In this document: one piece after another, positions 33,103-42,580 of the stretch
Numbering within the stretch: position 1 is the stretch's first letter
How the letters are laid out: each line of letters begins with the position of its first letter
NCBI GenBank assembly: GCA_045862955.1
Contig: BTVI01000028.1
Coordinates: 1-42,580 of the forward strand
Source: Fimbriimonadales bacterium
GTDB taxonomy: Bacteria > Armatimonadota > Fimbriimonadia > Fimbriimonadales > JABRVX01
Length of the DNA: 42,580 nucleotides
Direction of reading: 5' to 3'
Translations under genes and position numbers: made by a program
Notes under the pieces: model-generated
What the model saw: only the letters and a program-made list of their open reading frames with translations
Databases searched by the model: none
What the model was told of the DNA's origin: nothing

Positions 33103-33927
33103 GTGACTTCCTCGGCTCCCCGGCGGCGAAGGGGCTGCATCGGACCCGGACTGATAGGTCTCGGCGTGGTGGCTTTAGGGTTCTTCGCCTTCTACCAGTG
33201 GCAGCCTTGGGAGTACGAGCTGTTTCCGTCGGCGCATCCACAGGCTACGCACTCGGACCCCGATTCGTCGCGCTTGTTCGCCCAGGGGACGCGAGTAGCC
33301 GTCGTCACCGCTCATCCGGACGATGCGGAGTTCTACGTCGGCGGCCTCCTTACCAAGCTGGGGCGAGCCGGCTGCCGGATGACCCTCATCTGCGTGACCG
33401 ACGGCGACAAGGGCTACTACCCGTTCGAGGACGCGGCAGCGAATCGCAGAGTGCGTCGGCGCGAGCAAGCGGATGCAGCCCGTGCGTGGGGCGCGAGCGA
33501 AGTCGTCTACCTAGGCTTTCCGGACGGTCGGCTGAAGGTGACCGACGAGTTGGTGGACGCTATTCGCACCGAGCTGCAGCGGCTCGAACCGGACTACGTC
33601 CTCACCTTCGACGGAAAGCACCCGACGCGATTGCGGCACCGGGACCATCGCCGCACGGGAGTGGCCGTGGAGCGGGCGCTGCGGCAGACGCCGACCGGTT
33701 CGTGGTTGCTTCGCTTCTCGACTGCTAGCCCGAACTTCGCCGTGGACATCGGCGACGTGTGGGACCAGAAGATGCGGCTGGTGGCAATTCACTCGAGCCA
33801 GTTCTATGGCGAGCGACTGAGTCGGATCCGGTCGCTGCTGCGCTCGCGTGCGGAGGCAGACGCACGACTGCTCGGCACGAAAGCGAAACTTGCCGAGGGT
33901 CTTCGGGTCAGCCGGCTTCCACTCTGA
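33103..33927 (+). CDS. PIG-L/LmbE family deacetylase with N-terminal membrane anchor
   Basis: AHPDDAE, VTDGDKG, R.REQ, FPDG, HRDH, HSSQ motifs. Hydrophobic N-terminal helix. Confidence 0.9.
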   Translation: MTSSAPRRRRGCIGPGLIGLGVVALGFFAFYQWQPWEYELFPSAHPQATHSDPDSSRLFAQGTRVAVVTAHPDDAEFYVGGLLTKLGRAGCRMTLICVTDGDKGYYPFEDAAANRRVRRREQADAARAWGASEVVYLGFPDGRLKVTDELVDAIRTELQRLEPDYVLTFDGKHPTRLRHRDHRRTGVAVERALRQTPTGSWLLRFSTASPNFAVDIGDVWDQKMRLVAIHSSQFYGERLSRIRSLLRSRAEADARLLGTKAKLAEGLRVSRLPL

Positions 33928-34084
33928 AGCCGGTAGCGTGCGTGCAACGGGCCAGCGGCGACAGAACGCGTGTTAGTCGTCCTCCGGGCCGCATGGTGGT
34001 TGGCTTCCGCGCGCGTGCGCTCGAGGCCAAGCGACAGGGGCCGAGCCGGTGTTTCCCGCGCCAGTGCTGCTCGCGGCGCAGCGC

Positions 34085-34253
34085 GGCGGACGCGGGCCGG
34101 GGCATGGAGTGCGGGCGGCGAGGTCATGCTTCGACAGGCTCAGCATGACGAAGCTCAGATGGAATCCTGGGGCCGCGGTATTGCCCCGGCGCGGTCCTTG
34201 GACTCGCGGTGTGCGGTCGGTAGGTGTAGTGCAGCGGATGCAGGCCGGGGCAT
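34085..34253. repeat. REP-like mosaic element between convergent genes
   Basis: One core GTCATGCTTCGACAGGCTCAGCATGAC at 34122, flanked by GCCCCGGC...GCCGGGGCAT modules that match those in the terminal arrays. Confidence 0.9.
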
Positions 34254-34376
34254 AGAACAGTTCAGTCTGACAGCGAGCGCGCCGAGCCGAGGCGGGAATC
34301 CGGTACATCGCACGGACCGACGGGCGCTGGGCGGCCGAGCGGCAGCCAAGCTCCGGCAGAGGAAGACCGAGCGGGC

Positions 34377-38595: not shown

Positions 38596-39525
38596 ATGGT
38601 TCATAACGTCATCATCATCGGTTCGGGTCCGGCAGGCTACACGGCCGCGCTGTATACGTCCAGAGCAAACTTGCAGCCCCTGCTGTTTTCGGGTGACGAG
38701 CCGGGCGGGCAGTTGATGATCACCACCGACGTGGAGAACTATCCCGGCTTTCCGAACGGAATAACCGGTCCGGAGATGATGCAGCTCTTCCGACAGCAGG
38801 CGGAGCGCTTCGGCACCACCGTGCGGGACGAGAAGGTGACGGCGCTGGATGTCTCGGAGCGACCCTTTACTGTGCAGGCTGGCGGCGAGACCTATCGGAC
38901 CAAGACGGTCATCCTCGCGACCGGAGCGTCGGCGAAGTGGCTCGGCCTTCCCGCGGAGAAGGCGCTGATGGGGCACGGCGTGTCGGCTTGCGCCACGTGC
39001 GACGGGTTCTTCTTCCGCGATAAGACGGTCGTTGTGGTAGGGGGCGGGGACACGGCGATGGAGGAGGCCGGCTTCCTCACGCGCTTCTGCTCCAAGGTGT
39101 ACGTCGCGCACCGGCGGGATGCGCTGCGGGCTAGCAAGATCATGCAAGACCGCGTGCTCGGCAACCCCAAGGTGGAGATGCTGTGGAACACGGTCATCGA
39201 AGACATCCACGAGCCTGCAGAGAAGCGGGTGACCGCCGTGACGCTGCGCGACACCAAGTCGGGCGAGACGCGGCGGATGCCGGTGGACGGGGTGTTCGTC
39301 GCAATCGGACACGAGCCCAACAGCCAACTGGTGCGAGACGTGCTGGAGACCGACGAACTCGGCTACGTCATCACCGAACCCCGATCTACGCGCACGAAAA
39401 TCCCGGGCCTATTCGCGTGCGGCGACGTGGTGGACCGAACCTATCGCCAGGCCGTGACCGCGGCGGGCTCGGGTTGCATGGCTGCGATTGACGCCGAGCG
39501 CTTCCTGGAGTCCGAGGGAAACTAG
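38596..39525 (+). CDS. trxB: Thioredoxin-disulfide reductase
   Basis: [52 protein letters not shown]. Confidence 0.97.
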
Positions 39526-39569: not shown

Positions 39570-39598
39570 TGGACTACGGGACGGTCTCGCGTTATACT
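39570..39598 (+). promoter_or_regulatory. Putative sigma70-type promoter
   Basis: TGGACT-17 bp-TATACT, 60 bp upstream of ATG 39659. Confidence 0.45.
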
Positions 39599-39658
39599 GA
39601 AGGCGCAGTGCAAGACAGTCCCCCGGGTCTCGCCCGGTGGGCAAAGGGGAGTTGGCGA

Positions 39659-40768
39659 ATGAGAGCGACCACGCTGGTCGGGGTGCTCATGGCAGCCGTG
39701 GCCTGTTCGGCGGCAGTTGACGTTGGCATCTTCGACGACACTCGCGTATGGAGCCCGGTGTACAACGTAGAGACGGGCGCCGCGATGACGGAGCTAAGGG
39801 CAATCTGGGAGGCCAGGGGGGCAGTCTGGCACCAGACGGATGTACTCAGCGAATCTTTCCTCTCCCAAGTCTCTGTCTTCTATACCAGCCAGATACTGCA
39901 GCAGAACCTGACCGCAGCGGAACAGACGGCAATCGTAAACTGGGTGAAGGCGGGCGGGACCCTGGTGGTCACCGCCGATTGTGGGTGACCCGGTAACCAA
40001 GCGGCATACAACAGTATGCTAAGCCAGTTCGGCTTGAACCTAATGGGAACCATCAGTTACGGGTATGGCGATATCCTCGCCCCGCACCGCATCACCCAGG
40101 GCCTGACCACTGTGTTCCTGGGCAAGAACGGCTACCTTACCACCCCGTCGAGTGCACTGCACCTAATAGACGACCCCCAGGGCAACATCGCGGCAGCCGT
40201 GATGGAGCGCACGCCGGAGACCGGCGCCGGTCGCCTGTTCGTCATCGGCGAGAACGACATGTTCACCGATACGTACCTGATGCTCTACCCAGAGGACCGG
40301 CTGCTGGCCGAGAACATCGCGTCGTGGGCACTGACGCAGAACCCCGTGTTGACCGGTGTGGTGAGCCTGCCGGGTTATCTCGGGGACACGGCGGGTATTC
40401 CCTTGACGGTGAGGTTGTACCAGAACGGCAGCCTCGTGGGGACGTACGCAACTGCGTTGACCTCCGGCGGGCACTACTCGGTGCAGGTGGGGAATCCGGG
40501 CACGTTCGACGTGGTGGCGAAGCCTTGGCGGTGGCTGGGGCAGCGTCAGTACGGCGTGCTGATCGCAGGGGACAGCGTGCTCGACTGGGCGATGGTGCGC
40601 AACGGCGACGTGAACGACGACAACGTGGTGGACATCATGGACCTGAACGAGACGCTGCTGCAGTTCGCCCGGACGGGGACTCAGACAGGGGACTTGGACG
40701 GCGATGGTCAGGTCGGGTTACCCGATCTCAACATCGTGCTGATCAACTTCGCGCGGACGGGAGATTAG
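39659..40768 (+). CDS. Secreted protein with a C-terminal dockerin-like repeat pair and one in-frame TGA at 39986-39988 (readthrough/selenocysteine candidate or nonsense allele)
   Basis: Signal peptide after a GGGGAG RBS. The frame continues ...VVTADCG*PGNQAAYNSMLSQFG... with no other stop until TAG 40768. C-terminus has GDVNDDNVVDIMDL and GDLDGDGQVGLPDL. Confidence 0.7.
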
Positions 40769-40928
40769 GCTCGGCTGGTTCGACGCGCCGACGCCAGCGG
40801 GGTCACCGGACCGTCGGGGTGTCGAGACCGATCGCGCATCAACGGGGCGCCCACCCTCTCGGTGATGCTCAGGTCCGGCGGGAGGCCCGCACTGTCGCCG
40901 TCCCGGCGATGTGTGCCATGCCTCGGCC

Positions 40929-42580
40929 CGTCATGCTGAGCTTGTCGAAGCATGCGAACGCAAGCCGCAAGCGTTGCATCGGAGGCCGCCATCACCCGGA
41001 CGGCGAGGGCACGGGTGTCCCGATTCATGCCCCGGCGCGGTCCTTGGGTTCGCTCGGCGCGCCCAGCGGGTGCAGGCCGGCGGACGCGGGCCGGGGCATG
41101 GAATGAAACGCCAACACCTAACACCCTACCCGTCACACCCCTACCCGTCATGCTGACCTACCCGTCATGCTGAGCCTGTCGAAGCATGCGAACGCAAGCC
41201 GCAAGCGTTGCATCGGAGGCCGCCATCACCCGGACGGCGAGGGCACGGGTGCCCCGCCTGTCGGGCTGCCGATACTACCATCCGGCAGGCGAGGGCATGC
41301 TTCGACAGGCTCAGCATGACGAAGCTCAGATGGAATCCCGGGGGCGTGGTCAGGCCCCGGCGCGGTCCTTGGGCTGGCGGTGCGCGTCCGGTAGGTGCAG
41401 CCCGGCGGACGCGGGCCGGGGCATGGAATGCGCGCGGCGAGGTCATGCTTCGACAGGCTCAGCATGACGAAGCTCAGCAGAACGGTCTTGGTTGCGACCG
41501 GTGGACGGCTTCCGATGGCATCGTTCGGGCTCGACACCTCGGAACGCCAACATCTAACACCCCTTTCCCGTCACACCGCCCGACCCGTCATAGGCCTACC
41601 CGCCACACCCATATCCGGCAGACCCCTACCCGCCACACCCCTACCCACCCGACCCCTACCCGTCATGCTGAGCCTGTCGAAGCATGCAACCGCAAGCCGC
41701 AAGCGTTGCATCGGAGGCCGCCATCACCCGGACAGCGAGGGCACGTTGGCACCGACACGGGTGTCCCGATTCATGCCCCGGCGCGGTCCTTGGGATGGTG
41801 GTGCGCGTCCGGTAGGCTCAGCCCGGCGGATGCGGGCCGCGGCATGGAGAACCCGCCACACCCCTACTCGTAATGCTGAGCTTATCGAAGCATGACGTCG
41901 CCACTGCGATTGGGGAGGGAAGGGCACACATGGCTCGGGGCGTCATGCTTCGACAAGCTCAGCATGACGAAGCTCAGATGGAATCCCGGGGGCGTGGTCA
42001 GGCCCCGGCGCGGTCCCTGGGCTCGCGGTGCGCGTCCGGTAGGCTCAGCCCGGCGGACGCGGGCCGCGGCATGGAGTGCGCGCGGCGAGGTCATGCTTCG
42101 ACAAGCTCAGCATGACGGGCTACCGATACTACCATCCGGCAGGCGAGGGCATGCTTCGACAGGCTCAGCATGACGAAGCTCAGATGGAATCCCGGGTCCG
42201 TGGTCAGGCCCCGGCGCGGTCCCTGGGCTGGCGGTGCGCGTCCGGTAGGCTCAGCCCGGCGGACGCGGGCCGCGGCATGGAGAACCCGCCACACCCCTAC
42301 CCACCCGACCCCTACCCGTCATGCTGAGCCTGTCGAAGCATGCGAACGCAAGCCGCAAGCGTTGCATCGGAGGCCGCCATCACCCGGACGGCGAGGGCAC
42401 GGGTGCCCCGCCTCTAGCGCGGCCGCGGACGTTCGGAACGCGCGGCGCGCGCGGCGGGTTGGCTCCGCCCGGGGGACGGGGGCCGCGGCCTGGAGAACCC
42501 GCCACACCCCCCCCCCCCCGCCCCCGCCCCGTCATGCTGAGCCTGTCGAAGCATGCGAACGCAAGCCGCAAGCGTTGCAT
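40929..42580. repeat. Mosaic REP-like array (right end, runs off the window)
   Basis: About 11 core copies in both orientations. Also GCCCCGGCGCGGTCC...GGACGCGGGCCG(G/C)GGCATGG modules, a GCAAGCCGCAAGCGTTGCATCGGAGGCCGCCATCACCCGGAC module and short CCCCTACCC tandem units. Confidence 0.93.

Follow-up and report, generated by a model that had tools for sequence, protein, structure and literature searches.

A Fimbriimonadales gene with an in-frame TGA in a Cys-Gly-TGA motif: a probable selenoprotein on a GIFT/DUF4350-like scaffold

In the 42,580-nt stretch of Fimbriimonadales DNA analyzed here (“the window”), a reading frame of 369 codons is interrupted by a single internal stop codon, TGA, before it reaches its TAG terminator. 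Does this TGA end one gene ahead of a second, or is it read as selenocysteine (Sec), so that both halves belong to one protein? An earlier note, made from the sequence of the window, favored a CxU selenoprotein of a family that it did not recognize. Here, we describe a computational follow-up. We conclude, with a probability of roughly 0.88, that the TGA encodes selenocysteine and that the gene is a real selenoprotein. A census of the homologous codon, the Sec genes of the genome, and independent contigs all support the CxU proposal.

The reading frame and the codon at the TGA column

The features of the locus are collected in Table 1. As the note had observed, the open reading frames ending at 39988 and starting at 40016 share a frame, with the TGA in the context ADCG*PGNQAAYNSM. 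The first part has a GGAG at 39648–39651, 7 nt upstream of its ATG, and an N-terminus that we too judge, by eye, to be a likely signal peptide; the 20 nt preceding ATG 40016 (CCAAGCGGCATACAACAGT) contain no GGAG-like site. The stems GGTCACC/GGTGACC, GGCATAC-AACA-GTATGCT, and AAGCC-AGTTC-GGCTT are present where the note placed them.

Table 1. Features of the locus, in window coordinates
Feature	Position	Strand	Basis
Thioredoxin-reductase-like gene, upstream neighbor, probably incidental	38596..39525	+	Translation
Sigma-70-like promoter match TGGACT-17-TATACT, between trxB and the gene	39570..39598	+	1 found vs 0.2 expected; consensus match only
Shine-Dalgarno-like AAGGGGAG, 7 nt before ATG	39644..39651	+	Sequence
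Predicted selenoprotein gene, 369 codons through one TGA	39659..40768	+	Frame and homologue census
Likely signal peptide, residues 1–18	39659..39712	+	By eye; hydrophobic N-termini across alignment A1; low pLDDT
DUF4350/GIFT-like domain, class I glutamine-amidotransferase-like fold, residues 20–228	39716..40342	+	Profile and structure match
Possible stem: UGA paired with upstream GTCACC	39967..39990	+	Predicted in 3/4 Sec lineages
D107-C108-G109-U110 motif (GAT TGT GGG TGA), loop after strand 101–105	39977..39988	+	Alignment and model
In-frame TGA, inferred Sec codon	39986..39988	+	Column census and independent contigs
Synonymously conserved stretch with hairpins 40003–40020 and 40021–40035 (second loop AGUUC), candidate SECIS	39995..40035	+	Conservation and folding
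X-module and dockerin-like tail	40343..40765	+	Structure match; tail common to 73 ORFs of the genome

A family-wide search recovered five copies of the gene in each of three genomes, i.e., 15 full-length copies: the genome that holds the studied copy (G000, contig C28) and two others (G001 and G002). The codon at the TGA column is TGA in seven copies, TGC (Cys) in six, and Gly in two. All seven TGA copies (G000 C28, C12, and C44; G001 C2, C62, and C55; G002 C2) fall in one alignment column and keep the Cys two residues upstream, and both Gly copies have lost this partner Cys (EDSG, ESAG). Recurrence at a single column in 7 of 15 copies is more than chance would give. A metagenome scan added eight loci, of which the only one covering the motif (L048, 86% identical) also has TGA. 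Neither TGG nor CGA, which the note had named among the codons that would refute Sec if seen in reads, occurs at the column in these 16 sequences; the DNA at the column comes from three genomes and one contig only. An intact sense codon in a close relative would have told against Sec as well, and the same-genus orthologue in G001, 85% identical, keeps the TGA. The two orthologues differ by 36 amino-acid and 85 synonymous changes in the 259 codons downstream of the TGA, and the gene halves on both sides of it are, judging from such comparisons, under purifying selection.

In a tree built with this column masked, Sec copies occupy four places, and a single Sec clade is rejected (AU p 0.006), albeit in a quick tree with long branches. 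The TGA is therefore not one inherited nonsense mutation. The scattered Sec copies may reflect repeated gains or an ancestral Sec with reversions, which such a tree does not distinguish. Paralogues of different types can be neighbors: G002 has a tandem array of Sec, Cys-free, and Cys paralogues (C2:66500-74000, L023), and in G000 a Cys paralogue adjoins a Sec paralogue (C12:47272-50304), an arrangement repeated in G001.

The sequence over 39986–39988 was also compared with contigs (assembled, not raw reads) from four other studies; runs with a small share were left out of the evidence. All of these assemblies read TGA. Two contigs from RNA libraries, X15 (39934–40129) and X16 (39869–40019), cross it with 0 differences, and carry no information on expression level or strand. 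Two DNA contigs, X4 and X13, cross it as well, and among the differences listed for them none is in the TGA. The presence of the codon in independent contigs excludes an assembly error.

The gene upstream, which we take from its motifs to be thioredoxin-reductase-like (trxB), adjoins only this copy and its G001 orthologue; the other paralogues lack it. The association with trxB that the note had pointed out thus looks incidental, and a functional link is not supported. The family has no conserved neighborhood, and its neighboring genes give no functional clue.

Domain architecture and predicted fold

The fold was modeled with AlphaFold2 from 11 sequences, with U replaced by C (mean pLDDT 86.7). 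Residues ~20–229 match the GIFT domain of IFT52 (5fms_A; Foldseek E 3e-10; Z 22.3, rmsd 2.5, 201 aligned) and, with Z of 11–17, other class I GAT-like folds. The model thus places the TGA inside a single folded domain, as the note had suspected from a pattern running across the stop. Against Pfam DUF4350 (PF14258, cut-off 30.4 bits), the protein scores 28.1 bits and two paralogues score 45.4 and 30.8; no NCBIfam model matches it above cut-off. DUF4350 and the IFT52 GIFT domain (PF23355; PDB 5fms) are the best profile and structural matches.

The motif sits in a loop between strand 101–105 and helix 114–124, where IFT52 has E-G-G-E: MLGEGGESRFDTNINFLLEEYG of IFT52 aligns with VTADCGUPGNQAAYNSMLSQFG. 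Neither IFT52 nor the distant bacterial relatives examined, which have the same domain, possess the Cys pair, and the CxC/CxU loop appears, from these alignments, to be an addition of this clade. No conserved His was found in alignment A1. We presume that the nucleophile elbow of a GAT fold would fall near A106 rather than at C108/U110, with no triad His evident.

The earlier note had also called the tail dockerin-like. This stands at the level of fold: in the model, residues 227–369 match type II X-module-dockerin modules (3kcp_A, Z 13.8; 5g5d_B, Z 13.4), such as those of Clostridium thermocellum scaffoldins (PDB 4u3s, 3kcp, 5g5d). It does not stand at the level of sequence profiles, since the tail is below the Pfam and NCBIfam dockerin cut-offs (PF00404, 11.6 bits against 22.9). 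Unlike the C. thermocellum system, the genome (97.6% complete) has no match to Pfam cohesin (PF00963), and no cohesin partner for the tail was found in it. A profile of the tail matches 73 ORFs in the genome; among tail ORFs that follow an in-frame TGA, the junction lies inside a conserved domain only in the three family members. This X-dockerin-like tail without a Pfam cohesin may represent an undescribed sorting or anchoring system. Matches to the tail profile are also numerous in the genomes of family f4.

Selenocysteine machinery and the RNA downstream of the UGA

All four genes that the note had asked about are present in G000: selA (E 1e-155), selB (E 1e-99), selD, which has its own in-frame TGA, and selC, a 94-nt tRNA-Sec directly after selD that is the one strong match to the Rfam tRNA-Sec model. 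G001 also has selA, selB, selD, and tRNA-Sec. In G002 (94% complete), selA, a TGA-containing selD, and tRNA-Sec are present, and selB was not found at E 1e-60, though this genome has a TGA copy. TGA terminates 326 of the 900 ORFs of at least 450 aa in G000, which agrees with the note's caveat, made for the window, that TGA is an ordinary stop and leads us to reject a genome-wide reassignment of UGA to Trp or Gly.

A hexamer-based scan of G000 covered 35,926 TGA junctions, of which 101 passed, including the three family copies and selD. When the junctions were limited to the 222 that carry a Cys-type motif, ranks 1–3 went to the family copies and rank 7 to selD. None of the three molybdopterin-oxidoreductase or 15 AhpC/TSA matches in the genome has an internal stop, and Rdx and selU were not found there. 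The selenoproteins recognized in G000 are thus the three family members and SelD only, by a scan that is blind to short proteins and to C-terminal Sec. Two TGA junctions on contig C22 were rejected as different frames of one frameshifted gene. The same contig (12900-15400) has a secreted protein gene broken by a TGA and frameshifts, the C-terminal end of which we take to be PEP-CTERM-like (VPEP).

The SECIS element is the weak point of the selenoprotein reading. According to PMC13188914, the consensus bacterial SECIS has a G in the first two loop positions, 16–37 nt spacing, and an MFE of −7.5 or below. Two hairpins had been put forward as candidates from the sequence. The first, with the AACA loop, is seen within this orthologue group alone; the other three Sec lineages lack it, and we therefore reject it as a family-wide SECIS. 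The second has its AGUUC loop 37 nt after the UGA and a folding energy of −6.0 kcal/mol for the hairpin alone; it fits the expected loop and spacing better but is not diagnostic. Elsewhere in the family the loops differ: GUUCG at +39 in the long hairpin of the C12 group, GAGUUA at +44 in the G002 copy, and GUGUA at ~+46 in the C44 group, the last appearing in single-sequence folds and absent from the two-sequence consensus. A hairpin that resembles a SECIS just as closely occurs in one Cys copy, and no hairpin common to all Sec copies yet absent from the Cys copies was found. An Rfam search gave nothing above threshold. When the 60 nt downstream of the UGA were compared with synonymous resamples, folding z-scores in the eight Sec copies ranged from −1.1 to +0.8, with no Sec copy more stable than its resamples; the lowest values, −2.0 to −2.8, belonged to the Cys copies C12a/C62a. 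The hairpins alone are therefore not more than chance.

The family hairpins are weaker than that of selD and differ between paralogues, with loops about 37–45 nt out. In selD of G000, by contrast, a GAGGU loop caps a strong 9-bp stem. Across the order, a hairpin with a GAGGU-type loop lies ~31–33 nt out in the 10 TGA copies of selD listed, and it is absent from the one Cys-type selD (G015). At selD loci L037 and L057-L065, two conserved hairpins follow the UGA, at ~+15 and ~+33, the second being the GAGGU loop.

Synonymous conservation appears to be better evidence of a cis element than the hairpins are. In an interval of codons +3 to +15 picked after inspection, synonymous changes number 1/12, 1/11, and 0/13 in the Sec orthologue pairs versus 4/11 and 4/12 in the Cys pairs. 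With the interval fixed at codons +1 to +15, the counts are 3/14, 2/13, and 0/15 for the Sec pairs, 1/15 for selD, and 4/13 and 4/14 for the Cys pairs, against gene-wide synonymous change of 31–41%. Ranked within their own genes, the fixed intervals of the Sec pairs fall in the lowest 10%, 15%, and 1.5% (Fisher-combined p 0.01), that of selD in the lowest 4%, and those of the Cys pairs at 43% and 31%. The signal for the studied copy, the lowest 10% of its gene, is modest. In addition, seven of eight Sec copies use GGG for the Gly that precedes the TGA, as do none of the three Cys copies with Gly there. This allows three of the four Sec lineages to form a predicted stem between the UGA and a GTYACC upstream of it. 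The note's suggestion that the UGA sits within a stem thus extends to most Sec lineages as a prediction. BSepDB (PMC13326102) gives a canonical SECIS for 87.4% of its entries and none for 12.6%, so an atypical SECIS is not disqualifying.

Alternative readings, precedents, and taxonomic range

How else might the TGA be read? It could be recoded as Cys by tRNA-ReC (SelC*), which would make the product an ordinary CxC protein. PMC13582414 reports ReC-like genes in five of five Armatimonadota genomes with UXXU hydrogenases, and the sense-codon paralogues of our family do carry Cys. However, ARAGORN with default settings finds 49 tRNAs in the 97.6% complete genome, and none of them has the ReC features described there; they include one UCA tRNA, the 94-nt gene next to selD, which has a G discriminator, and one 76-nt tRNA-Cys. 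The single strong match of the Rfam tRNA-Sec model likewise argues against recoding as Cys, which we consider very unlikely. A true stop would be marginally harder still to accept. It would leave a 109-aa secreted piece followed by a re-initiated 250-aa piece, or allow regulation by leaky readthrough. This would suit the ordinary use of TGA as a terminator in the genome, the two proteins annotated by public gene callers, and the retention of ATG 40016 in this orthologue group, where GGGTGA resembles a Shine-Dalgarno core. Yet the break would fall inside what the model predicts to be one folded domain, and the second piece lacks both a signal peptide and a Shine-Dalgarno site. Moreover, the first ATG after the TGA is at codon +10, +42, +72, or +91, varying by copy, whereas the interrupting codon is TGA in every case and never lies outside the Cys column.

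The least credible account is that the copies are pseudogenes or carry assembly errors. Frameshifted genes do occur elsewhere in the genome, on the contig C22 described above; however, the same codon recurs in three genomes and one metagenome contig, contigs assembled in four other studies show it too, and both halves of the gene appear to be under purifying selection. On the strength of the column recurrence, the independent contigs, and this selection, we reject a nonsense mutation or an assembly error.

The reading that we consider likely is Sec at the UGA, and translation would then yield one 369-residue protein with Cys-Gly-Sec in its GIFT/DUF4350-like domain. SelB would deliver Sec-tRNA at the UGA, aided by a cis element in the first 50–70 nt downstream. 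The signal peptide would direct export, the dockerin-like tail would hold the protein at the cell surface, and the C108/U110 pair would serve for redox chemistry or soft-metal binding. Among these functions we favor, at about even odds, a selenenyl-sulfide/thiol redox centre; CxU motifs usually serve redox roles, as stated in PMC13188914. Soft-metal binding by the pair in concert with two conserved acidic positions, D/E107 and D200, is a more tentative suggestion, made because of the SAO-system precedent (see below). A part for the pair in nucleophilic hydrolysis is improbable. Lastly, we float as a speculation, against which the balance lies, that the Sec machinery is kept mainly for surface-displayed Cys-x-Sec proteins on a non-catalytic GIFT scaffold with a non-canonical UGA signal (a UGA-pairing stem plus a long hairpin with a G-U loop 37–45 nt away).

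Several known selenoproteins resemble the predicted one. The CxU families in Table 1 of PMC13188914 include the UshA-like NF041198, rhodanese form 3 (NF041203), ferredoxin-thioredoxin reductase (NF041072), and thioredoxin-like Sec.1; all share with it a CxU motif, a UGA aligned with Cys, and selABCD, and all differ in domain. The selenoprotein form of the CTP-synthase C-terminal (glutamine amidotransferase) domain, NF004836, listed there and in PMC12013277, shares the broad class I GAT-like fold and the exchange of Sec and Cys. It is, however, PyrG-like with the motif GxUxG, whereas the studied protein has [DE]-C-x-U, a signal peptide, and a tail, and does not match NF004836. Haft and Gwadz (bioRxiv 10.1101/2022.07.06.499078) describe SaoB, SaoC, and SaoX as exported predicted selenoproteins of the SAO system, proposed heavy-metal binders on which SECIS servers failed. 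Like the studied protein as predicted, these are extracytoplasmic with Cys/Sec motifs, but they have unrelated folds and a conserved ABC-transport operon, and our family lacks a conserved neighborhood.

The 119 families in Table 1 of the 2026 catalogue PMC13188914, which contains those of Haft and Tolstoy 2025, include no DUF4350, GIFT, or dockerin entry, the nearest being the PyrG-like GxUxG family; no NCBIfam model matches above cut-off either. No DUF4350 or dockerin was found in the accessible portion of the PMC13326102 supplement. Literature searches for selenoprotein with DUF4350, selenoprotein with GIFT domain, and Fimbriimonadia with dockerin found none; by their listings, those for selenoprotein with dockerin, selenoprotein with Armatimonad, and selenocysteine with Fimbriimonad gave nothing relevant except PMC13582414. 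The family is probably uncatalogued as a selenoprotein, and the candidates of Deng et al. 2026, BSepDB, or preprint supplements could already list it. What is of a known kind is the recoding mechanism; what is new is the scaffold, together with the location predicted at the surface and the atypical cis signal.

If the selenoprotein reading is true, it adds to the families in that Table 1 one on a GIFT/DUF4350 scaffold and accounts for gene pairs stored publicly as split hypothetical proteins. Each genome has Sec and Cys paralogues side by side, joined in one genome by Cys-free ones; these would form a natural series bearing on the benefit of Sec outside the cytoplasm and on the recurrence of Cys-to-Sec exchange. 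Because the RNA downstream of the UGA is conserved without being uniform, it would offer a way to test the standard model on SECIS elements that do not fit it. A functional site in DUF4350-like domains is indicated as well, as is a dockerin-like tail system of 73 members that has no recognized cohesin.

The taxonomic range is narrow. Matches occur in 3 of 401 genomes of the phylum, two of them weak and partial, and in 5 of 228 genomes of the class, comprising the three close-family genomes and two more distant ones, of which the match in G036, an unpublished genome on which we base no conclusion, lacks the Cys motif. Source labels of close relatives name Fimbriimonadia (Armatimonadota). The motif pattern has four matches in a genome collection, three in one Fimbriimonadia record and one in an actinomycete, and 0 in viral contigs; the ESM Atlas returned only GIFT/DUF4350-type clusters (0.90–0.93). 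Because selB is present in 20 of 41 relatives sampled and the close family in 3 of 228 class genomes, most Sec-using relatives lack the family.

Of 1.84 billion representatives searched with phmmer, 211 matched at E ≤0.001, and the best 150 of these were listed; the fragment counts rest on 53 proteins from phmmer and a cluster look-up, plus further stored fragments. Among the matches listed, at least 15 stored fragments of <200 aa end in [DE]-C-x(x). Fourteen of those 15 protein records end exactly one residue before the Sec column; they include the G000, G001, and G002 copies and three fragments of a single cluster. The remaining fragment, P0170, runs one residue further, to ...TGECGG, and may be a CxxU variant. 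Five short relatives of the Cys-free outer group (P0114, P0118, P0119, P0127, and P0140) end elsewhere and were excluded from the count of Sec-type fragments. The ends of P0159/P0164/P0165, P0131, and P0030, distant members outside the main clade (ECT/DCT or ECN), suggest Sec use beyond the three-genome family. Further CxC proteins were found among public relatives. Some relatives are very large: P0025, P0027-P0029, and similar proteins of 3000–4500 aa have up to 8–10 stretches of a related GIFT-like domain, with no Cys motif in P0025. Lastly, a repeat that includes ‘gtcatgctgagcctgtcgaagcatg’ and has palindromic arms, which we liken to REP elements, is present many times in the window at 33900–34350 and 40790–42580, and similar sequence occurs on other contigs.
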